Below are positions 53,943-64,000 of a stretch of DNA of 64,000 bases, one piece after another. The translations under genes were made by a program, and so were the position numbers. Within the stretch, counting starts at the first letter, position 1. Each line of letters begins with the position of its first letter. This DNA is from Thiohalomonadales bacterium (lineage in GTDB: Bacteria > Pseudomonadota > Gammaproteobacteria > RBG-16-57-12). The notes below the pieces were generated by a model. It did not search any database. It worked only from the letters and a program-made list of their open reading frames with translations, and had not been told where the DNA came from. The DNA is taken from the NCBI GenBank assembly GCA_050295955.1, contig JBNKQQ010000083.1:10219-74218 (forward strand). Direction: 5' to 3'.

Positions 53943-54045
53943 GATTAATCTCTGTCGATCAGGAAATTAATTTCTAGTCTAAATTGTATTGTTTTTTAAG
54001 GGCATAGCAGTGGTATGATGAAGAGCCTTAGGGGGGTGATTCATC

Positions 54046-54612
54046 ATGATTAGAGTTCTCAGTATTCTTTCTATCTTGCTAATCTCATTACAGACAGCAG
54101 GGGCGGCATTTGATGTCGAATCCAAAGCAAGCCTCTGTGCTATCTGCCATGAACATAGCGGTGATGCCTTGGTGCCAACGCTATCCGGCCAATCCAAAGC
54201 TTATCTTCTACAACAGCTAAAACGCTACCAAAGCGGCGAGCGGGAGAGCAGCGTGATGTCCGCGGTAGTGAAATCTTTCAGTAACGATCAGGAGATGGCA
54301 GCGGTAGCGGAGTATTTCTCCAAGCAAGAGGCGAAGGGAGGCACGGTGGCTGACAGTGAGCAGTTCTATGTGGGTAAACATATCTTTGAACAGAAGCTTG
54401 CTTGTGTCAGCTGTCATGGATTTGATGGGCAGGGTAAGTCTGGCAAGAATTTAATTGTGCCTAATTTAGTAGGGCAAAAATCAGAATATATTATCCAGCG
54501 CCTCAAGGACTTTCGGGAATCACAACAAAAAGAGAACCCCATGGTTCAGGTGGCAGAAAAGTTGGAGGATAGCGAGATTGAGAGCATCGCTAGCTATCTG
54601 AGCGGTATGTAG
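54046..54612 (+). CDS. Diheme c-type cytochrome (c4-like)
   Basis: Signal peptide. CAICH and CVSCH heme-binding motifs. Confidence 0.75.
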   Translation: MIRVLSILSILLISLQTAGAAFDVESKASLCAICHEHSGDALVPTLSGQSKAYLLQQLKRYQSGERESSVMSAVVKSFSNDQEMAAVAEYFSKQEAKGGTVADSEQFYVGKHIFEQKLACVSCHGFDGQGKSGKNLIVPNLVGQKSEYIIQRLKDFRESQQKENPMVQVAEKLEDSEIESIASYLSGM

Positions 54613-54682
54613 CAACGGCTCACTCGCAATCCCGGAGCAACAAGCGCATAATGGGCGAAATTTCCAAAACCCATGTGTGATT

Positions 54683-54934
54683 ATGACCAACAACGAAATT
54701 ATCAAAAAGCTGCGCATCGCTCTGGACCTGAAAGAGCTGGATATGATTGAGATCTTCGAACTCTCTGGATATGAGATCAACAAATCAGAACTCTCCGGCA
54801 TCTTTCGCAAAGAGGGGCACAAAAATTACCGCGAGTGCAGCGACAAAGTGCTGAACCATTTTCTCAATGGTTATATTGTCTACAGGCGGGGCTTGGAAGA
54901 GGAAGAGGCTGTGATAGAAGTAACCGACCAATAA
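54683..54934 (+). CDS. DUF1456 (YehS-like) single-domain protein
   Basis: EIIKKLRIALDLKELDMIEIFELSGYEI ... similar to the YehS repeat unit. Confidence 0.5.
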   Translation: MTNNEIIKKLRIALDLKELDMIEIFELSGYEINKSELSGIFRKEGHKNYRECSDKVLNHFLNGYIVYRRGLEEEEAVIEVTDQ

Positions 54935-55018
54935 AAGCCCCCAGTTCACTTGTTCCCCCACACAAACCCCCGTACAATCCGGCTATATAGTTAGCCGCCT
55001 CCGGAGTAAGAACGAGGA

Positions 55019-55774
55019 ATGTCTCAAAAAGTGATGTCATCACAGTCCCTATTAAAAGAACCCGTTGTCGAGTTCAAGGGCTCCAGCTTTACCCTTACCA
55101 TCCTGGTAATCTCCAGCTTCGATCTTGATACCATTGTTGAAGATATCAAAAAGCGCCTTGCTCAGGCGCCACGCTTTTTCCTGCACGCCCCGGTGGTGGT
55201 GGACCTCAATCCGCTGAAAGAGCAGCAGGGAGAACTGGACTTTGCCGCATTAGCAGAGCAGTTGCGAGCGCTGGAACTGGTACCCGTTGGCGTTTGCAAT
55301 GGCAATCCCTGCTTCTATGAAGCTGCCGTAGCCGCTGGCTTCGCTGTACTGCAGTCTGGTCCACAGCCACGCGCAGTCCAGCGGGAAGAGCCCAAGCCAG
55401 CCCCACAGCCTGAGCCTAAAGTGGTTGAGCAGCCCAAGGCGGAACCACTGGTGATCCACAAACCAGTACGCTCTGGCCAACAGATCTACGCCAGAGGCCG
55501 AGACCTGATCCTGATGGCCCAGGTGAATGCTGGGGCTGAAGTGATTGCCGATGGCAACATCCACGTCTATGCTCCTTTGCGAGGCCGAGCGCTGGCTGGT
55601 GTTCAAGGGGATACCAATGCCCGTATTTTCACCCTTAATTTCGGCGCTGAAATGGTGGCAATTGCTGGCAACTACCGTGTATTTGAAGAGCAGCCCGCCA
55701 CCGATGTGGCAGGCAAAACCAGTCAAGTTTATCTCGATGGCGAACAACTGATTGTTGCGCCATTGGTTTCATAA
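55019..55774 (+). CDS. minC: Septum site-determining protein MinC
   Basis: MinC N- and C-domains (C-terminal beta-helix GNIHVYAPLRG). Followed by minD and minE. Confidence 0.9.
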   Translation: MSQKVMSSQSLLKEPVVEFKGSSFTLTILVISSFDLDTIVEDIKKRLAQAPRFFLHAPVVVDLNPLKEQQGELDFAALAEQLRALELVPVGVCNGNPCFYEAAVAAGFAVLQSGPQPRAVQREEPKPAPQPEPKVVEQPKAEPLVIHKPVRSGQQIYARGRDLILMAQVNAGAEVIADGNIHVYAPLRGRALAGVQGDTNARIFTLNFGAEMVAIAGNYRVFEEQPATDVAGKTSQVYLDGEQLIVAPLVS

Positions 55775-55796
55775 AATTCCTAGGGGAGGTTAAGCC

Positions 55797-56606
55797 TTGT
55801 CAAAGGTAATCGTTGTAACATCCGGAAAAGGTGGCGTAGGCAAGACCACCAGTAGCGCCAGTATCGCGACCGGTCTGGCGATGAAAGGCCACAAGACTGC
55901 AGTCATCGACTTCGACGTGGGCCTAAGAAACCTGGATCTGATAATGGGGTGTGAGCGCCGCGTGGTATACGATCTGGTTAATGTTATCCACGAAGAGGCA
56001 ACACTTAAACAAGCCCTGATTCGTGACAAGCGCTGTGATCAACTCTACATCCTGCCAGCCTCACAAACCCGCGACAAAGATGCTCTGACCACTGAAGGGG
56101 TTGAGCGGGTGCTGGAAGAGCTGAAAAAAGAGTTCGACTACATCGTTTGTGATTCACCTGCCGGTATCGAGCAGGGCGCTGTGATGGCACTCTACTTTGC
56201 CGATGAAGCCTTCATCGTCACCAACCCAGAAGTCTCCTCGGTGCGTGACTCTGACCGCATACTTGGCATCCTGAATGCTAAATCCAAGCGTGCCCAAGAG
56301 GGCGCAGAGCCTATTAAAGAGCACCTGCTCATCACCCGCTACTCACCTAACCGTGTTGAAACCGGTGAGATGCTGAGCATTGATGACATCAAAGAGCTGC
56401 TGGGTATCGATCTGATTGGTGTGATTCCTGAATCAGAAGCCGTACTACAAGCTTCCAACTCCGGCACCCCAGTGATCCATGATCAACAGAGCACCAGTGG
56501 CCAAGCCTACGCTGATGTTGTGGATCGCTTCCTGGGAGAGGAACGCCCGCTACGCTTTATCGAGCCTGAGAAGAAGGGCCTGTTGAAACGACTGTTTGGG
56601 ACCTAA
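55797..56606 (+). CDS. minD: Septum site-determining ATPase MinD
   Basis: VVTSGKGGVGKTT deviant Walker A. C-terminal amphipathic helix. TTG start. Confidence 0.95.
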   Translation: MSKVIVVTSGKGGVGKTTSSASIATGLAMKGHKTAVIDFDVGLRNLDLIMGCERRVVYDLVNVIHEEATLKQALIRDKRCDQLYILPASQTRDKDALTTEGVERVLEELKKEFDYIVCDSPAGIEQGAVMALYFADEAFIVTNPEVSSVRDSDRILGILNAKSKRAQEGAEPIKEHLLITRYSPNRVETGEMLSIDDIKELLGIDLIGVIPESEAVLQASNSGTPVIHDQQSTSGQAYADVVDRFLGEERPLRFIEPEKKGLLKRLFGT

Positions 56607-56608
56607 CC

Positions 56609-56869
56609 ATGTCACTACTCGATTATCTATTGCGAAAAAAGAAAAAGCCCAGCGCCTCGGTCGCCAAAGAGCGTCTACAGATCATCCTGGCCCGAGAGCA
56701 CGGTAATGACGAACCAGACTTCCTGCCAGAACTTAAACGGGAACTGCTGGAAGTGATCAGCAAATACACCAACATTGATTTGGATGAGATCAGCGTCAAT
56801 CTGGATAAAGAGGACGACTGCGAAATCCTTGAAGTCAACGTAGTGTTGAATAAGAAGGATGCGGCGTAA
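56609..56869 (+). CDS. minE: Cell division topological specificity factor MinE
   Basis: MSLLDYLLRKKKK N-terminus. 86 aa. Confidence 0.95.
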   Translation: MSLLDYLLRKKKKPSASVAKERLQIILAREHGNDEPDFLPELKRELLEVISKYTNIDLDEISVNLDKEDDCEILEVNVVLNKKDAA

Positions 56870-56893
56870 ATTCACGCAGTGCATCACTTCATG

Positions 56894-56922
56894 AAAAGGC
56901 GGCCAATGGTCGCCTTTTTTAT
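56894..56922 (+). terminator. Probable rho-independent terminator after minE
   Basis: aaggcggcc-aat-ggtcgcctt (one mismatch) plus T-run. Confidence 0.5.
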
Positions 56923-56960
56923 TTGGTAGGTGCGCGCCCTGCAAAAGTAAATTCATCCAA

Positions 56961-57200
56961 TTCTAAAAGTGTGTGTAGGAGCCTGCTTGCAGGCGATGGG
57001 CTTTTATATCGCTATTGCTGTAGGAGCTTGCCCTGCAAGCGAACCCACTCAATTCTAATAAGCGTGTGTAGGAGCCTGCTTGCAGGCGATGGGTTTTTAT
57101 ATCGCTACTGCTGTAGGGGCTTGCCCTGCAAGCGAACCCACTCAATTCTAATAAGCGTGTGTAGGAGCCTGCTTGCAGGCGATGGGTTTTCATATCGCTA
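56961..57200 (+). repeat. Tandem BIME-like array: ~91-bp units each containing REP (gtaggagcctgcttgcaggcgat) and variant REP' (gtagg[a/g]gcttgccctgcaagcga)
   Basis: Units begin at ~56961, 57051 and 57143. REP is identical to the pair at 1362-1421. A further REP variant lies at 57528-57550. Confidence 0.8.
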
Positions 57201-57204
57201 CCGC

Positions 57205-57571
57205 GATGAAGTGGATATCACTTCGTGAGGTTTTATTGGCATCGGGATTCCGTCCCGATAGCCGGGTCACTTTTTTACCGTAAAAAAGTAACCAAAAAAG
57301 CTCTCCCGAAAAATGCGGTCGCCAACAACGCGACTTCCCTCGGTTCTCACTATGAACAGCACTCCTGGCAACTCGCTTCGCTCAAACATGCCATCCGCTT
57401 AATCTGTTCATCGCTGCGAGCCTCGGCACATTTGAACGGGGATGAAAGGCATGGCATATTCCGCTAACGCGGAAGAAAAAGTCATTCTGCACTTGATTCA
57501 GAATCCAGGCTAATTCTAAAAAGCGTATGTGGGAGCCTACTTGCTGGCGATGGGTTTTATATCGCTACCGC
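57205..57571 (+). repeat. Structured repeat element, copy L1 (hairpin-rich, ~200-bp conserved core)
   Basis: Hairpins gaagtg-gatat-cacttc, atcggga-ttccg-tcccgat, cttttttac-c-gtaaaaaag. Core ggtcgccaacaacgcgacttccctcggttctcac...caaacatgccatccgc...gcgagcctcggc...catttgaacgg. Confidence 0.75.
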
Positions 57572-57900
57572 GATGAAGTGGATATCACTTCGTGAGGTTT
57601 TGTTGGCATCGGGATTCCGTCCCGATAGCCGGGTCACTTTTTTACCGTAAAAAAGTAACCCAAAAAACTCCCCCGAAATATGGTCGCCAACACCGAGACT
57701 TCCCTCGGCTCTCGCTACGAATGGCGCTACTGGCAACTCGCAAACTACGCTCAAACATGCCATCCGCTCTTTCCGTTCGTAGCTACGAGCCTCGGCAGTA
57801 TTTGAACGGGAATGAACGGCGTTTATATATTTCGCTAACGCGAAAGATGAAGAGCCGCTTCGCGGAGTAATTGAATGGGTGCTTGCGACCCGTTGTAGCC
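57572..57900 (+). repeat. Structured repeat element, copy L2
   Basis: Same architecture as L1 with indels and paired substitutions. Putative ORF frames differ between copies, so noncoding. Confidence 0.75.
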
Positions 57901-58090
57901 ATTGGCAGGCAGCTAATTGAACGTCAGCCATTGGTAAAAATTAACAATCAATATATACATTCAAATAGATTGGGTTGACTAGGTATCCCATGCAAGCAAA
58001 GTTGCAAATTGGCTTAATGATCAATAGTGCTCTTGGAAGGAACCTCCTTCCGATAACACTACTTGCACCGGATTGCTGTTGGTGAATGAA

Positions 58091-59173
58091 TTACGAATGG
58101 GGGGGCTCAAGTCTAGGTGAACAAACCCCTGATGTAGGCATCGTAATTCCCCATGGATAAGCCGGAGTTTCTCCTCGTTGATACTGGTAAACTGTTACCT
58201 TAGGTAAATTTCGTTTGTCATAAAGTGTTCCAAAGCGGAATACCAAACTGCTCGGCCCAGCGATAAAAAGGTGGATGTGGTTAATTCCGTAACTGTCCAA
58301 TTTAGTGAGCATTTCAAGAAATTGCCTGCCTAATGCTCGCTGCTTGTCTTCTGACCAGTGAGAGTCTGGCCCAGCATTCTGCAATTCGAGATGAATTAAT
58401 GGAATATTAGGTAGTTTCTTCTGAATCTCAGGTAAATTGGCTATGTATGATATAGAAATGGCTAAGACTGCCTCTGTTGATTCTTGGTCAAGTTGTGTCC
58501 CAAGATATTTAGTATCAAAGCGATTTCCATCGTCAGCTTTTTCAAGCTGCTGCCATCTTTTTTTATGTCGCTCCCAATCAAAGATATGAATTTCCGATTC
58601 ATCATCTAGAATTGTCCCTGCTAGAAAAGTTAGAGGAACAGGGGCCAGTCCTCCAAATACAGTTGTAATATCATTTCTATTGTTTCCAGCTTCATATTGG
58701 TCAAGCTGATAAGTGATATGTACTAATTTATCTAGAGCAACTTGAGGTTCAACGATATAGCCATCTCTAATATTTTGCCTGAGATCTACTAGTATGCTAT
58801 TACGTCTTCCCTCAAAGTAGGGGGGGAGCGATTCATTTAAAGGAGTACCGGCTGAATCGCGAAGCCCTCTTACTTCAATAACATTTACTCTTTTGCGCGA
58901 TAACGCTCGATATTCCATGGTATGTCTAATTATTTCCCATGGTATGGCTATTGATATTAATGCAATACCGAGGAAGTAAGTTGTATAGATCAAGAGTGAA
59001 GGAATATTTCCCTCAATATCGATATCTAATTTGAAAGAGTCTCCACTTTCAACAGAAAAGGTAATATCTGCAGCAGCAGCTAGAGTGAGTAGAAATACCC
59101 CTGCTCTTAGAAAATACAATGCAGGTGACTTTTTACGAATAATCCAGTATATGATTTGTTTAATTATTGTCAC
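58091..59173 (-). CDS. CBASS-like effector: N-terminal 2-TM domain fused to a SAVED-like (CARF-related) sensor domain
   Basis: Two N-terminal TM helices. C-terminal ~270 aa ending HIHLFIAGPSSLVFRFGTLYD, resembling the SAVED C-terminal motif. Immediately downstream of the nucleotidyltransferase. Confidence 0.5.
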   Translation of the reverse strand: MTIIKQIIYWIIRKKSPALYFLRAGVFLLTLAAAADITFSVESGDSFKLDIDIEGNIPSLLIYTTYFLGIALISIAIPWEIIRHTMEYRALSRKRVNVIEVRGLRDSAGTPLNESLPPYFEGRRNSILVDLRQNIRDGYIVEPQVALDKLVHITYQLDQYEAGNNRNDITTVFGGLAPVPLTFLAGTILDDESEIHIFDWERHKKRWQQLEKADDGNRFDTKYLGTQLDQESTEAVLAISISYIANLPEIQKKLPNIPLIHLELQNAGPDSHWSEDKQRALGRQFLEMLTKLDSYGINHIHLFIAGPSSLVFRFGTLYDKRNLPKVTVYQYQRGETPAYPWGITMPTSGVCSPRLEPPHS

Positions 59174-59195
59174 GTCTTTAGTTACCTCCCCGCTT

Positions 59196-60710
59196 CTATT
59201 GGATATTCACTATAAATTGCCCACTACGCGCTGCTAGCAGTCCATCTTTTACTATAAAGCATTCTATGCTGTGCATACCTTTATAGGAGGTGGACTCCTG
59301 TCTTGTTAATGAGTTGCAGTCTCTAGAAAAGTCACCCCGTAATCCACAAGCCAATTTAGCTTCGTTACCAGTATTTACCACCTGCCAGTGTACTTTATAT
59401 GGAGGTGGAATATTTGTTGTAGCCTCAAACTTTAAATCGCAGTTTTTCGGCAAGGCTTCACCGTTGCTATCAAATCGGTATGGCCCATATTTATTCTTTC
59501 TATATGTAGCCTTTGCAATTTGAACATTCCCTTGTACTGAAGTCTTCCAAGGGGGAGTTTGTTTATGGGGAGGATTTAGAGCTAACTGTTTGCTTGAATG
59601 ATGGTGTATGTCACTGTAATTTACGTTGTTCTTTGAAAGTGATGCATCGATTAGTTTTTTTCCTAATCTAGGTGTGAGGGTATTAGCTGCAGATTCCTCA
59701 TTTAGTGCATTAGCTGCACTGTAGAAATCTTCTCTCGCTTGGGCGAGCCACTCATAGAATGCACCTTTCCTTTCAGGATATTGTTGCCAGCGGTCAGAAA
59801 AATTTTCAGCCGGGTCCGTCGGGTTGGGTATCCATGACACTCCATTACGTGTCTCTATAAAGCTATCCATGCGTTGAAGAATACTATACAGTGCCCCTGA
59901 TATAGTCGGTTCTTGCTGGTATGCATGACCTGCCAATGTGGTTAAAATAATGGATATGGGCTTTTCATCCAATCGTTTAGCAAACATAGTATTCCTATGA
60001 TGCTTGAGAAGTTGAATAGCTGACTGTAGTGGTGTACGAACCTTATAGTCTGGTATATCTTCAACGCTAGCATTAATTGCATAAGCAAGTTCCTTTTTTC
60101 TCTGCTCAAAAATCACAGTCATTCGGGATTTGAACCAGTCGCTATATCCCTTAGGGTTGCTATGTGGCCAATAAGAAGTGATGCATTTGTAATATGGGTG
60201 ATCCCTATCAGTAATGGCGATTGCAGATTCAGACCATTTCGAAGAAAATCCTCTGCTAGCAAGAAGATATCTCATATCCTCCCCGTCAGGGATTGCAGGC
60301 AGTGTATCCAAATGAAATTGTGCACCATCAGCATAGTTTTGGGTCCAACAGCGTCTGCCTTCATCAGGTATTTTCATTTCATGTGCTTTCGCATACTCCT
60401 TTAACTCAAAACCCAAGGCTTCCTTCAATTGATGTTGTGTTAATGAGCTTTTTGACAAAGTCAGTTCACAAACTAGATCAATGTCATAATCGTCATCACC
60501 TGAGTGGGGTTTAATGACTGTTCCTAAACGAAATGATCCTTGAACGTATACCTGTGGATTTGCATCTTTAAGCTTGGAGCTATCTCTGTTTAGCCATTTA
60601 CCAACTGATGTATAGCTGCGCTCTGCTGCTTCATATCTGCTGGGAGATATTTGTAGTGCTTCTACTGCATTTTCAAGTAGCTTTTCAGTGTGTTTCTTAA
60701 TGTTTGTCAT
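59196..60710 (-). CDS. SMODS/CD-NTase-type (cGAS/DncV-like) nucleotidyltransferase with ~300-aa C-terminal extension (possible AGS-C sensor)
   Basis: QGSFRLGTVIKPHSGDDDYDIDLV = GS...[DE]x[DE] Pol-beta NTase motif, in SMODS-like N-terminal context (..Y..V..WL). 504 aa. Confidence 0.6.
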   Translation of the reverse strand: MTNIKKHTEKLLENAVEALQISPSRYEAAERSYTSVGKWLNRDSSKLKDANPQVYVQGSFRLGTVIKPHSGDDDYDIDLVCELTLSKSSLTQHQLKEALGFELKEYAKAHEMKIPDEGRRCWTQNYADGAQFHLDTLPAIPDGEDMRYLLASRGFSSKWSESAIAITDRDHPYYKCITSYWPHSNPKGYSDWFKSRMTVIFEQRKKELAYAINASVEDIPDYKVRTPLQSAIQLLKHHRNTMFAKRLDEKPISIILTTLAGHAYQQEPTISGALYSILQRMDSFIETRNGVSWIPNPTDPAENFSDRWQQYPERKGAFYEWLAQAREDFYSAANALNEESAANTLTPRLGKKLIDASLSKNNVNYSDIHHHSSKQLALNPPHKQTPPWKTSVQGNVQIAKATYRKNKYGPYRFDSNGEALPKNCDLKFEATTNIPPPYKVHWQVVNTGNEAKLACGLRGDFSRDCNSLTRQESTSYKGMHSIECFIVKDGLLAARSGQFIVNIQ

Positions 60711-60729
60711 ATATTCTTAACCTCTCCAA

Positions 60730-60963
60730 TCAATCTTTAGGTGGATATGGGTCATTGCCATGACTATCGCTACTGGCAATACGTCCATTTTTATTGTGAA
60801 TGCGCAATTCAGTGCCTTGATTGCGACTGGTTTCACGCCCTTTGCTGATAGCATCAGCTTTTGTTTTATGGTGGCTGCTTGCCCGTTGAGCTTCACCACG
60901 TTTAACATCCCAGCCACCTTGAGGGTTGGATACGATGTGATGCGTTTTAGGACCTTTTGGCAT
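60730..60963 (-). CDS. DUF2188 small protein, immediately upstream of and co-oriented with the nucleotidyltransferase
   Basis: KGPKTHHIV.NP.GGWDVKR...RASSHH.TKADAI..GRE.SRNQGTEL.IH.K.GRI...DSHGNDP.PPKD matches DUF2188 consensus. Confidence 0.65.
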   Translation of the reverse strand: MPKGPKTHHIVSNPQGGWDVKRGEAQRASSHHKTKADAISKGRETSRNQGTELRIHNKNGRIASSDSHGNDPYPPKD

Positions 60964-61269
60964 AATAATGCTCCTTTGCTTTATATATTTAACTAATTTT
61001 TAATCGATTATTAAGGGTTTCCTCAATTGCATACCTAATAGCAATTAGAGATAAATATCCCCTAGTGCTTATATATACTGCTGAGAATAAAAAAGTGGCG
61101 ATTTTTTGTAAAAACTTATAAGTCACTGTTAATGAAGGATAAAATTTTGTGCCGAATTCATTTTGTTAATTTGGCCTGTTGTAGATATAATTATTCTTAT
61201 ATAAATTTTATGGTGAATTTTTTCTCCACTTTTGCATTTTGAACAGTATTAGGGATATAGGAGGAAGTT

Positions 61270-61842
61270 TTGAGCGACCAAGCACATTACACTGAAATTG
61301 AGGTTGAGGAACTTATTCAAGGGCTTACTGATTCTCAAATAGCCAAGATGCTGCATGTTTATCGAAATAAGGGATGTCAGCAAAGGGCGGGACTATCAGG
61401 GCATGATGTTTTTCAAAATGCTGTAATGAAAGCTTTATCAAAAAAGAATTGCTGGAAAAAGGGAATCCCTGCTGAAGCTTATCTAATTATGCTAGGAAAA
61501 AATTATATAAGTAATGAGGAGAAAAAATATTCACGGAATGTTTATGAATCACAATCTGATAATTTACAGATTGAGGCACTTCCTATAACAGCTGTAGACT
61601 GCTCTGAACACACTCATGAGTTCATAATTCAGGAATGGGTTGGTAAAATTGTTAGCCTCTTTGCTGATGATAAAGATGCTTCTTGTTTTTTGAAAAGCAA
61701 GTTGGCACAGGCCAAAAAAGCTAAAATACTCGCTTTATGTAGATTTACAGATCAGGCATATCGAAATGTTGAAAAAAGGATTAAAGATAAGGCAAGGAAG
61801 AGATTTCCTGGTGGTGTGCCGTTTAATGAGGCAACGCTATGA
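61270..61842 (+). CDS. Hypothetical protein (190 aa), first gene of a divergent tri-cistronic operon
   Basis: TTG start with GGAGGA RBS. No recognisable domain. Its stop overlaps the next start. Confidence 0.4.
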   Translation: MSDQAHYTEIEVEELIQGLTDSQIAKMLHVYRNKGCQQRAGLSGHDVFQNAVMKALSKKNCWKKGIPAEAYLIMLGKNYISNEEKKYSRNVYESQSDNLQIEALPITAVDCSEHTHEFIIQEWVGKIVSLFADDKDASCFLKSKLAQAKKAKILALCRFTDQAYRNVEKRIKDKARKRFPGGVPFNEATL

Positions 61843-62276
61843 GTGCTGAATTTCTTAAAATGATCAATGAGTACATTATCGATTCAATTATTGAATGTGA
61901 TGATGATGAGTATTTGTCAAATATAGGAAAGGATGGTTATTCATCTCAAGAGGACATTGACTTTGCTAGATCATTTATCCAAGCCACTGTTAGGGAGCTA
62001 AGGCAAGAGCGCTTAAATGCTAGTAGAGAGCGTTATGCTCAATCAAAAAGCCAAAAAAGTGGTGTATTAGATACCATTTCTACAACAAAGCCTCTCCAAG
62101 AGATGCTTACTCAGATTATTTCAGTGATGCAAAGTGAAGAGCAGGTGCCTGATGGGTTACTTATCGCTTTTAGGGAACAAGGGAAAACTGGTAGTGAAGA
62201 GGGTATTCGCAATATATGGAAATCTCTCGTTGAGCTTGGATTAATTGATCCTGAGAAGGATGAAAATTCGAAATGA
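61839..62276 (+). CDS. Hypothetical acidic protein (145 aa), second gene of the operon
   Basis: ATGA overlaps on both sides. No recognisable domain. Confidence 0.4.
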   Translation: MSAEFLKMINEYIIDSIIECDDDEYLSNIGKDGYSSQEDIDFARSFIQATVRELRQERLNASRERYAQSKSQKSGVLDTISTTKPLQEMLTQIISVMQSEEQVPDGLLIAFREQGKTGSEEGIRNIWKSLVELGLIDPEKDENSK

Positions 62277-63040
62277 GGTTCAAGCAACAACCCAATGATA
62301 TTTTGAAAAGGCTTGGCATGTATGAGCCTGAAGATATTGATTTGGATTTAATTGCATTTGATTTGGGTGCTGAGGTGAAAAGAGCATCGTTGAATGATTG
62401 TGAAGGGAATATCCTAGGAACGTCAACGAAGGCAATTATTACAATTAATAAGATTTCTAGAATTGAAAGGCAGCGTTTTTCATTAGGACATGAGTTGGGA
62501 CACTGGGTAAATGATCGGGGAAAAAATTTAACTTATCGTTGTACTACGGACGATATGCGGCAACGCTCTATGATTCAAGAAGATTTTCGCCAAAATAAAG
62601 AAGTGCGTGCAAATCAATTTTCAGCAGAGCTCCTTATGCCTGACTTCATATTCAAAAGGTATGCTGAAAATTTGGATATTATCCTAAAGACAGCAAGATA
62701 CCTTGCAAATACTTTTAATGTGTCACTCACAAGTACCGTTATAAGGCTTGTTGAGTTATCTGAGAGGCCATGCATGATTATTTGCTGGGACAAGATGGGT
62801 AAACGGCGCTGGTTCTCACGTAACGATATTATTCCTGAAAAAATATGGCCACATGAAAGAATTTTTCATCCTCAAGAAGTATTCAAGCTTTCAGATGGAG
62901 TAGAGGTGGATGCTGATAAATGGATCAACTTGGCAGGATCAGAGAATTACACCGTAATCGAAAGTATATTTTCAAATACATATGACTTTTTATCACTCAT
63001 TTGGTGGAAGGATGAAGAGCAGCTAGCTCACTATCTATGA
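62273..63040 (+). CDS. ImmA/IrrE-family zinc metallopeptidase (CapP-like) with C-terminal Cys/His-containing domain
   Basis: HELGHW (HExxH) at the N-terminal peptidase core. Downstream E in QFSAELLMP. C-terminal CMIIC ... HERIFH. Confidence 0.6.
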   Translation: MRFKQQPNDILKRLGMYEPEDIDLDLIAFDLGAEVKRASLNDCEGNILGTSTKAIITINKISRIERQRFSLGHELGHWVNDRGKNLTYRCTTDDMRQRSMIQEDFRQNKEVRANQFSAELLMPDFIFKRYAENLDIILKTARYLANTFNVSLTSTVIRLVELSERPCMIICWDKMGKRRWFSRNDIIPEKIWPHERIFHPQEVFKLSDGVEVDADKWINLAGSENYTVIESIFSNTYDFLSLIWWKDEEQLAHYL

Positions 63041-63084
63041 GCTGCTACCTCAGATGATTCTCTACCTATAGCTATGACTACTTA

Positions 63085-63420
63085 GTACCGCATGCGGCCA
63101 TCCAATTTTTCCTACAAAGCGGTTCTTTTTCTTTTGCGTTAGCAAAACATAAAATGCTTTTCACATCCCGTTCAAATGCAGCCGAGGCTCGCAGCTGTGG
63201 ACGGATAGAGCGGATGGCATGTTTGAGCGTAGTTTGCGAGTTGCCAGGAGCACCGTTCGCAGTGAGAACCGAGGGAAGTCGCGTTGTTGGCGACCGGTAT
63301 TTTCGGGCCTTCTCTTTGATTACTTTCTCTTGGCCGTTCAAGAGAAAGTCATTAGCTGTCGGGCTACCCCCGACATCTCATTAATCGTCACGCAGTGACA
63401 CATAATCTTACCGCAGAGCC
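63085..63420 (-). repeat. Structured repeat element, copy R1 (inverted relative to L1/L2)
   Basis: The reverse complement matches the L-copy core (ggtcgccaacaacgcgacttccctcggttctcac...). Hairpins actttctcttg-aacggc-caagagaaagt and tgtcggg-ggtag-cccgaca replace the L-copy hairpins at the same positions. Confidence 0.75.
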
Positions 63421-63489
63421 AGTAGGGCAGGCTCACTACAGTGATAGTGATATAAAAATCGCGACTCGATTACTGTATTGCATTTCTGT

Positions 63490-63835
63490 GAGTTGAAGCC
63501 TGGATTCTGAATCAAGTTCAGAATGACTTTTTCTTTCGCGTTAGCGAAACATTAAATGCAGTTAATTCCCGTTCAAATACAGCCGAGGCTCGCAGCTGTG
63601 GACGGATAGAGCGGATGGCATGTTTGAGCGTAGTTTGCGAGTTTCCAGGAGCACCGTTCGCAGTGAGAACCGAGGGAAGTCGCGTTGTTTGCGACCTGTA
63701 TTTTCGGGCGGCCTTCTCTTTGATGACTTTCTCTTGGCCGTTCAAGAGAAAGTCATTAGCTGTCGGGTTACCCCCGACATCTCATTAATCGTCACGCAGT
63801 GACACATAATCTTACCGCAGAGCCAGTAGGATGCG
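63490..63835 (-). repeat. Structured repeat element, copy R2
   Basis: Near identical to R1. Confidence 0.75.
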
Positions 63836-63939
63836 GTGATAACCGCATCGATCGAGACAGAATCATTACACGACTGATGCGGTTCGTTCCTCACCACATC
63901 CTACATTGAATGACCGCTCCAGCCGCTTTTGGCCATCTA

Positions 63940-64000
63940 ATTTATCTCGCGTAGCGGTTCTTCTTTTTTCGCGTTAGCGGAATATAAAATGCCTTTCCTA
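63940..64000 (-). repeat. Structured repeat element, copy R3 (partial, truncated by window end)
   Basis: cttcttttttcgcgttagcggaatataaaatgc parallels the R1/R2 starts. Confidence 0.5.

Follow-up and report, generated by a model that had tools for sequence, protein, structure and literature searches.

The cyclase gene of this locus encodes a protein much longer than its nucleotidyltransferase (NTase) motifs alone would need. Does the extra length hold a domain that senses phage, and to what kind of defence system does the gene belong? The window is the whole stretch of DNA analysed, 64,000 nucleotides. The gene lies on its minus strand.

59196-60710, minus strand: cdnG-type CD-NTase fused to AGS-C, a type I CBASS cyclase of 504 residues (Pfam, PADLOC, PDB, Foldseek).

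Identity of the cyclase

The open reading frame starts with ATG and has a ribosome-binding site, GGAGAGG, 8-14 nt upstream. The protein matches the PADLOC cyclase model PDLC00770 over its full length (E=2.4e-208). It also scores above the gathering cut-offs of Pfam SMODS PF18144 (35.2 bits, cut-off 26.5) and DncV-like_NTFase PF21654 (38 bits, cut-off 24.9). The family match is therefore beyond chance. The best PDB sequence matches are VcCdnG 9WOO (E=1e-74), SmCdnG 8HSB and BdCdnG 7LJN. The same CdnG structures were returned when the predicted model was searched with Foldseek, where the top 48 matches are all CD-NTases with E-values down to 4.5e-21. The closest PDB enzymes, together with the Asn/Tyr lid pair described below, assign the cyclase to clade G (CdnG). 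A Pycsar-type mononucleotide cyclase was ruled out, since the catalytic domain belongs to the Pol-beta CD-NTases instead of the class III cyclases.

More than 3000 homologues of the cyclase were found. The nearest one other than itself is 85% identical and the second nearest 66%, and a genome-locus scan returned 301 loci, the top one 63% identical. AGS-C is present in 70 of the 81 related cyclase loci inspected, and 29 of the 81 have a Saf-2TM/SAVED effector in the same gene order. The search of phage genomes gave a single cyclase homologue, weak and partial, so there is no sign of a phage-borne island. The earlier note had stressed the unusual length of the protein. It is long in comparison with CD-NTases that have no AGS-C, but not within its own family, in which lengths are mostly 505-520 residues. 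The cyclase is an ordinary member of the large, described CdnG-AGS-C class.

Catalytic core and lid

59631-60710, minus strand: NTase core, residues 1-360, with N-lobe, lid helix and helical C-lobe (AF2 model, VcCdnG alignment).

The NTase is not limited to the N-terminal 150 or so residues, as had been proposed. It aligns to VcCdnG with about 50% identity over residues 9-357, and the pLDDT of the core in the AF2 model is mostly 80-97. Residues 150-360 are helices in the model and match the helical lobe of VcCdnG and SmCdnG. The idea that the C-terminal region is simply the standard helical lobe thus proved correct for residues 150-360, but not for residues 390-504, which form AGS-C.

The NTase motif was recognised correctly from the start. 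GSFRLGT (G58, S59) and DYDIDLV (D76, D78) are found in the cyclase, and D135 is the third catalytic Asp. These residues are invariant or at least 90% conserved among 36 homologues, and align one-to-one with G56/S57 and D73/D75/D135 of VcCdnG. Judged by these residues, the active site is intact. Lid residues N185 and Y189 align with N194 and Y198 of VcCdnG, the predominant lid1/lid2 pair in clade G. The product of VcCdnG is 3'2'-cGAMP (PMC12804361). Since the two lid residues are kept and identity to VcCdnG is 50%, the predicted product here is most likely 3'2'-cGAMP as well.

In the one activation route demonstrated for clade G, the phage prohead protease cuts the enzyme at an internal loop, with no part for AGS-C (PMC12991175). 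The published activation loops are disordered and variable. The equivalent of the EcCdnG activation loop, at about residues 196-226 (VEDIPDY), is conserved, and ordered in the model. Because of this difference from the published loops, protease activation may fail to apply to the present cyclase.

Linker and AGS-C domain

59544-59630, minus strand: linker, residues 361-389, His/Pro-rich, disordered and variable in length (pLDDT, homologue alignment).
59199-59543, minus strand: AGS-C Ig-like beta-sandwich, residues 390-504 (Pfam, AF2 model, fold comparison).

A beta-rich extension of about 300 residues had been described. The extra piece comprises about 144 residues (361-504), of which just 390-504 are beta-rich. 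The C-terminus is not rich in Trp, Tyr and Cys either: the last 300 residues contain 1.7% W, 4.3% Y and 1.3% C, the same level as in the whole protein. The suggestion of an AGS-C-type domain was borne out. Pfam AGS_C PF18134 matches residues 381-504 with 101.2 bits (cut-off 26.7), over profile positions 4-129 of 129. The Ig-like sandwich is confirmed in the model, and fold comparison recovered the solved AGS-C 9ARD. A phmmer search of the PDB with the AGS-C segment alone gave nothing meaningful, the best match being an esterase with E=0.13.

The pLDDT falls below 50 at residues 362-376 of the linker. Its length ranges from 26 to 41 residues across homologues, and its column conservation is 0.51, against 0.74-0.77 in the rest of the protein; AGS-C and core are conserved to the same degree. 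The linker is closed by a conserved motif, LNPxHRxxPPW. Conservation among homologues also reveals a strongly conserved surface motif of AGS-C, WQVVNTGxEA...LRGGF.

AGS-C reportedly occurs on about 40% of the cyclases of type I CBASS, and clade G is listed with branches that have it and branches that lack it (bioRxiv 10.1101/2023.05.21.541620). The fusion is not unusual. What AGS-C does is a general question for CBASS and Pycsar cyclases, and one that matters for phage recognition by bacterial cGAS-like enzymes. That it senses phage is the working hypothesis of the field, on a correlative basis. The range of phages is shifted in operons with AGS-C, and these operons have the cross-resistance of escaper phages in common (bioRxiv 10.1101/2023.05.21.541620). 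By analogy, AGS-C probably tunes phage sensing or restrains the cyclase.

The domain could instead be an autoinhibitory, oligomerisation or localisation module, and not a phage sensor, with sensing left to the activation loop of the core. AGS-C might then inhibit the cyclase for as long as the exposed linker is uncut, or might dock the cyclase on a cellular or virion-assembly structure. The linker is the sole long disordered, length-variable segment of the model, and as such would lend itself to cleavage by a protease. Clade G cores of 53-55% identity without AGS-C exist (loci L068, L071-L079 and L081) and presumably work, VcCdnG and EcCdnG function without it, and Ig/FN3 folds are generic protein-protein adaptors. 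However, the altered phage range and escaper cross-resistance suggest a role in specificity, and the surface motif looks more like a site for a ligand or partner than like a passive spacer. We regard a non-sensor module as possible, though on the unlikely side. A weaker possibility is that the linker might be a second protease tripwire, at which a phage protease would strip off an inhibitory AGS-C. This cyclase family is a possible test case for the domain, if not a uniquely suited one: closely related cores occur in it both with AGS-C and without, and the linker at residues 361-389 gives a clean boundary.

The operon and the CBASS type

60730-60963, minus strand: DUF2188 protein of 77 residues, the first operon gene, 19 nt upstream of the cyclase (Pfam, PADLOC).
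58091-59173, minus strand: Cap14-type effector, Saf-2TM with C-terminal SAVED, starting 22 nt past the cyclase stop (Pfam, PADLOC).

The DUF2188 protein matches Pfam PF09954 (E=6e-21) and PADLOC PDC-S16 (E=5e-34), and in the closest relatives, too, its gene precedes that of the cyclase. The association of DUF2188 with CapH/CapP operons has been noted (bioRxiv 10.1101/2022.04.27.489752).

Hydropathy places two transmembrane helices in the effector, at about residues 17-39 and 57-82. It matches Saf_2TM PF18303 with 79 bits (cut-off 29.5; E=4e-22), SAVED PF18145 with 148.9 bits (cut-off 26.2; E=2e-43) and the PADLOC 2TM effector model with E=1e-123. BtCap14 is a cGAMP-gated channel (PMC10402079), and after its example the effector is predicted to be a nucleotide-gated channel. 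In the sole Cap14 characterised, the ligand is 2'3'-cGAMP from a clade B cyclase (PMC10402079), so the signal here could differ.

The open reading frames between the flanking repeats all lack Cap2/Cap3 (E1/E2/JAB), HORMA/TRIP13 and other accessory domains of types II-IV. By its gene content, DUF2188-cyclase-effector, the operon is assigned to type I CBASS. Types II and III were ruled out, the Cap2/3 and HORMA genes being missing.

The divergent regulator module

60964-61269, no strand: AT-rich divergent intergenic region, presumed to hold promoters and operator for both operons (sequence).
61270-61842, plus strand: protein of 190 residues, tentatively read as a strongly diverged ECF-type sigma factor (weak sigma matches).
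61839-62276, plus strand: acidic helical protein of 145 residues in the CapH position, with 4-nt overlaps with both neighbours (family search).
62273-63040, plus strand: CapP-like M78 (IrrE/ImmA-type) zinc metallopeptidase with a HELGH motif (Pfam, PADLOC, PDB).

The CapP-like protein is the clearest member of the module, with matches to Pfam Peptidase_M78 (E=3e-16), PADLOC capP (E=6e-50) and the CapP structure 7T5T (E=3e-8). Its gene is upstream of the CBASS operon in divergent orientation. Promoter-like sites are present in the intergenic region at 61163-61191 (plus) and 61112-61084 (minus); in a promoter scan of the island, the total number of sites did not exceed the shuffle expectation.

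Residues 45-105 of the 190-residue protein match NCBIfam ECF sigma models with E=6e-4 to 5e-3, and its sigma2-region scores are 16-19 bits against cut-offs of at least 126. In the PDB it finds the sigma factor 5UXX (E=0.06), and its family profile SigH (E=1.7). An hhalign comparison of the family with E. coli RpoE gave a probability of 0.3%. By eye alone, YRNVEKRIKDKVRKRF at the C-terminus looks similar to a sigma4.2 helix. The family is small, with 21 matches.

The 145-residue protein has no match in Pfam, PADLOC, PHROG or the PDB, and so no HTH there; PHROGs gave nothing for the 190-residue protein either. Profiles of both families found nothing significant in the PDB. A search of 1.84 billion proteins gave 43 representative clusters of the 145-residue family, and hhalign between this family and the canonical CapH of locus L009 gave a probability of 0.4%. 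By sequence, the protein is not recognisable as a CapH repressor. Its gene always has the sigma-like gene on one side and that of the M78 peptidase on the other; the three form a conserved, portable module.

One scheme is that the 145-residue protein would be an anti-sigma factor cleaved by CapP after DNA damage, upon which the freed sigma factor would transcribe CBASS or Bub operons. We consider this scheme doubtful. If true, it would be a positive control of defence operons, instead of the described cleavage of the CapH repressor.

The island and its boundaries

57184-57925, no strand: left boundary, a 370-nt repeat in two tandem copies (repeat comparison).
63089-63997, no strand: right boundary, at least 2.2 tandem copies of about 400 nt of the same family, inverted relative to the left (repeat comparison).

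The genes lie between the two repeat arrays, on an island of about 5 kb where the GC content drops to 0.34-0.41, against about 0.49 around it. Rfam applied to positions 54000-64000 gave a single sub-threshold chance match, which places the flanking repeats outside any described RNA family, and the repeats have no match among PLSDB plasmids. The right repeat array extends to the end of the window.

The low GC content and the bounding repeats, together with the finding of the exact cyclase protein on two contigs only, would fit a locus that arrived with the island by horizontal transfer and has decayed into a remnant without function, the long reading frame being kept by chance. But every catalytic residue of the cyclase is intact, and all six island genes are full length with homologues of matching length. 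They also overlap or are tightly spaced in the manner of operons. A remnant is thus very improbable. The reading of the protein as a long, loop-rich but ordinary CD-NTase with no extra domain, which draws on the alignment of residues 150-360, counted as extension in the earlier note, with the helical lobe of the known enzymes, is refuted by the Pfam AGS_C match, the beta-rich residues 390-504 and the 9ARD fold comparison, and we give it practically no credence.

Proposed mechanism

The locus very probably encodes a type I CBASS in which the cyclase consists of a CdnG core, a flexible linker and an Ig-like AGS-C, with an operon-encoded effector and a CapP module. The steps of its action, from activation, product and channel to the role of AGS-C and induction, are modelled on characterised relatives. 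Late in phage infection, the cyclase would be switched on; in clade G the trigger shown elsewhere is the prohead protease cut in an internal surface loop. The activated enzyme would make a cyclic dinucleotide, most likely 3'2'-cGAMP. Binding of this signal to the SAVED domain of the effector would let Saf-2TM open an ion-conducting pore, and the cell would be killed or arrested ahead of phage release. AGS-C would probably set which phages are sensed, or restrain the cyclase. After DNA damage, the CapP peptidase probably turns on transcription of the operon. In this reading the locus adds one to the thousands of type I CBASS of the CdnG-AGS-C/Cap14 kind; its host, as far as MinD homologues indicate, is an uncultured gammaproteobacterium.

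Comparison with known systems

The cyclase shares with VcCdnG, SmCdnG, BdCdnG and EcCdnG the fold, the GS/DxD/D catalytic set and the N/Y lid. Those enzymes are about 340-410 residues long and have no AGS-C, whereas the present cyclase carries one. The partners of the known CdnG enzymes are Cap5 HNH-SAVED nucleases, and several of these enzymes come from type II systems, which include Cap2/Cap3; the partner of the cyclase here is a membrane effector, and the operon is of type I.

The architecture and the two-gene core operon are shared with the CD-NTase-AGS-C fusions of Richmond-Buccola et al. (bioRxiv 10.1101/2023.05.21.541620). In these type I CBASS fusions AGS-C is Ig-like with a size of about 14-18 kDa, and the tested operons include clades G09, B06 and F04/05 (bioRxiv 10.1101/2023.05.21.541620). 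They differ from the present locus in host and sequence, and the unusual CapP-type regulator set is a feature of the operon here. EcPycC (PDB 9ARD) joins its AGS-C to a pyrimidine mononucleotide cyclase of the class III type, where the present protein has a Pol-beta-type CD-NTase; the similarity of the two AGS-C domains is detected by fold only, not by phmmer.

BtCdnB-Cap14 (PMC10402079) has the same two-gene type I layout, and its effector shares the Saf-2TM and SAVED architecture. BtCdnB is a clade B enzyme that makes 2'3'-cGAMP, and the cyclase here is of clade G, so ligand and ion selectivity may differ.

With the CapH/CapP systems of Lau et al. (bioRxiv 10.1101/2022.04.27.489752), the locus has in common an upstream, divergent CapP-like M78 peptidase; 24 such systems with an added sigma-70-family gene were reported (bioRxiv 10.1101/2022.04.27.489752). 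In the position of CapH, this locus encodes the 145-residue protein without a detectable HTH, while the closest relatives of the cyclase have a canonical XRE-type CapH of 120 residues. Only one feature of the locus is mildly out of the ordinary, the CapP partner that lacks an HTH; if the module proves to be a sigma/anti-sigma switch, it could extend the CapH/CapP paradigm.

The cyclase gene and its operon

A closely spaced operon on the minus strand holds the cyclase, with one gene on either side of it.

Genes of the CBASS operon
60730-60963, minus strand: DUF2188 protein of 77 residues, first operon gene (PADLOC candidate PDC-S16, PHROG 3220), 19 nt upstream of the cyclase
59196-60710, minus strand: cyclase ORF of 504 codons, ATG start with GGAGAGG ahead of it
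From 22 nt past the cyclase stop, minus strand: Saf-2TM-SAVED effector of 360 residues, Cap14 architecture

The ORF was found exactly where the earlier note had placed it, with both quoted motifs present. GSFRLGT supplies G58 and S59, DYDIDLV supplies D76 and D78, and the third catalytic aspartate is D135, within FHLDTLP. The protein matches the PADLOC 'oligonucleotide cyclase' model over residues 2–504 of 509 (E=2.4e-208) and exceeds the Pfam gathering scores for SMODS, the DncV-like NTase and AGS_C. By this full-length match and these scores, a chance ORF is excluded. The length, described before as unusual, is typical of the family; nearly all of the best 120 of more than 3000 matches have 498–529 residues and the same three Pfam domains. 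In the last 300 residues Trp makes up 1.7%, Tyr 4.3% and Cys 1.3%, as in the whole protein, so the C-terminus is not rich in them.

The system has no Cap2/Cap3, HORMA or TRIP13 genes, which makes it a type I CBASS. BtCap14, an effector of the Cap14 type, is a chloride channel gated by cGAMP (PMC10402079). The closest relatives keep DUF2188 as the first gene, as does a type II CBASS that carries the same regulator module. DUF2188 operons under CapH/CapP control were noted by Lau et al. (bioRxiv 10.1101/2022.04.27.489752).

Catalytic core and predicted product

A phmmer search against PDB matched residues 9–357 to CdnG of Vibrio cholerae (VcCdnG, 396 residues; 9WOO, E=1e-74), and SmCdnG and BdCdnG also aligned. 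Sequence and fold searches alike place the core in clade G. The AlphaFold model of the full cyclase (36-sequence alignment, mean pLDDT 86) displays a mixed N-lobe and then a helical lobe to residue 359. Thus the catalytic unit is not confined to the first ~150 residues, as had been proposed.

The key residues of VcCdnG are G56/S57, D73/D75/D135 and the lid residues N194/Y198; its product is 3'2'-cGAMP, and the N/Y lid pair is the predominant clade G configuration (JBC 2025, PMC12804361). In the phmmer alignment each has its exact counterpart in the window cyclase (G58/S59, D76/D78/D135 and N185/Y189), and every one of these is invariant or conserved to 90% or more across 36 homologues. Because the catalytic and N/Y lid residues match those of VcCdnG and are conserved, we infer that the cyclase is active, with 3'2'-cGAMP as its likeliest product.

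The AGS-C domain and linker

In the AlphaFold model the extension beyond the core comprises ~144 residues, 115 of them in the beta-domain, and not the ~300 claimed. Residues 362–376 are disordered (pLDDT <50), and an all-beta domain follows at residues 390–504. Residues 377–504 modelled alone gave an eight- to nine-strand sandwich with a pLDDT of 95.7. A sequence search of the AGS-C segment against PDB did not by itself find the solved AGS-C structure, 9ARD, that of the Pycsar cyclase EcPycC. The reading of the protein as a long ordinary CD-NTase without an extra domain holds for residues 150–360 and fails for 381–504. The first guess of AGS-C for the C-terminal domain was right; in the proposal of a fused AGS-C sensor that activates signalling, the boundary was misplaced, and the activating role is unproven.

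The domain is about as well conserved as the core; column conservation is 0.74 in AGS-C versus 0.74–0.77 in the two core lobes. The linker varies across homologues, with a column conservation of 0.51 and a length of 26–41 residues, and always closes with the conserved motif LNPxHRxxPPW. No other long segment of the model is disordered. The window copy (59544-59630, residues 361–389) is unusually His-rich, with DIHHHSSK and 4 His in 29 residues.

A scan with one genome per species gave 301 loci with cyclase relatives, spanning Alpha-, Beta- and Gammaproteobacteria to Acidobacteriota and Cyanobacteria-related lineages. Some homologues lie on Rhodobacteraceae plasmids, annotated only as 'nucleotidyltransferase'. 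Among the 81 loci inspected, the same Saf-2TM-SAVED effector is directly downstream in 29, DUF2188 is upstream of the cyclase in 14, and a CapP-like gene occurs in 13. Of the 81, 70 carry AGS-C; the other 11 lack it but have an equally similar core (53–55% identical). Such cores with and without AGS-C are natural pairs that could test the contribution of the domain. The clade G cores lacking AGS-C (loci L068, L071-L079 and L081, at 8001-~9070) end at about residue 355.

A divergent regulator module

Three translationally coupled plus-strand genes diverge from the operon across a 306-bp AT-rich spacer.

Regulator module and its copies at related loci
61270-63040, plus strand: sigma-like, 145-residue and CapP-like genes, divergent from the CBASS operon
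L082, 7001-8789: same gene order
L084, 7001-8819: same gene order
L085, 7001-8804: same gene order
L087, 7001-8816: same gene order

The 190-residue protein, of a small family (21 matches), shows weak, sub-threshold similarity to ECF sigma region 2. The third is a CapP-like M78 metallopeptidase (PADLOC capP, E=6e-50; PDB 7T5T, E=3e-8). In the described pair, CapP is a peptidase, stimulated by ssDNA, that cleaves the HTH repressor CapH; an additional sigma-70-family gene was reported in 24 systems (bioRxiv 10.1101/2022.04.27.489752). The CapH position is here occupied by the acidic 145-residue protein, in which searches of Pfam, PADLOC, PHROG and PDB detected no domain, and those of Pfam, PADLOC and PDB no HTH. 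Its small family has 43 representative clusters in a set of 1.84 billion proteins, and hhalign gave a probability of 0.4% against CapH. The closest cyclase relatives, at loci L003 and L009, differ from the window in having a canonical 120-residue XRE-type CapH with a 291-residue CapP.

The same three genes stand in the same order divergently upstream of different defence operons in four independent contexts: at L082/L083 the operon is a type II CBASS with DUF2188, and L084-L087 represent three ubiquitin-like operons of the Bub type. This marks the module as portable and dedicated to defence. Across copies the sigma-like protein has ~190–205 residues and the non-HTH protein ~140–145. An attractive interpretation is a sigma/anti-sigma/protease switch, in which the 145-residue protein may act as an anti-sigma factor that CapP cleaves; the putative sigma assignment is drawn from sub-threshold matches.

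Island borders

The CBASS and regulator genes lie within a 5-kb stretch of 34–41% GC, against a window average of ~49%, with minCDE immediately to the left. Homologues of its MinD put the host among uncultured gammaproteobacteria.

Flanking repeat arrays
57184-57925: left array, two tandem copies, inverted relative to the right array
63089-63997: right array, at least 2.2 tandem copies, continuing past the window end

The unit is 370–400 nt, and copies are 80–97% identical. No further copies occur elsewhere in the 64-kb window, and no Rfam family or plasmid match was found. RNA folding predictions for the repeats score modestly better than shuffled controls (z=−3.4 and −2.6). L001, an independent metagenome contig of 5.3 kb, ends about at the island borders, suggesting multi-copy repeats at which assemblies break. 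They are possibly a MITE-like element, a recombination hotspot or an island boundary.

Separately, just downstream of minE (56967-57200) is a tandem array of three REP-like units of 93 nt. Each has the palindromic core GTAGGAGCCTGCTTGCAGGCGATGG, which recurs as an inverted pair near position 1400 (1359-1384 / 1399-1422). Spurious ORFs run through the units (CRSLLAGDG repeats).

Comparison with known systems

A CD-NTase–AGS-C fusion is encoded by ~40% of type I CBASS operons in the Kranzusch-lab screen (bioRxiv 10.1101/2023.05.21.541620). There, AGS-C is an Ig-like domain, almost always present in clades B and H; in clades F and G some branches carry it and others lack it. AGS-C operons gave broader protection against Drexlerviridae and shared cross-resistance of escaper phages. 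A phage prohead protease activates clade A, clade G and some clade D enzymes by cutting a ~30-residue internal surface loop, K184–K218 with an LPEY motif in EcCdnG (2026 preprint, PMC12991175). Neither study assigns a mechanism to AGS-C. The equivalent of the EcCdnG loop in the window cyclase, ~196–226, carries VEDIPDY (family consensus VEDIPEY). This segment is modelled as ordered and is conserved, not variable, across homologues, so protease activation is plausible but unproven here; in the model, the linker before AGS-C is a conceivable protease site. With its CdnG–AGS-C cyclase and Cap14-type effector, this CBASS is of a known and common kind.
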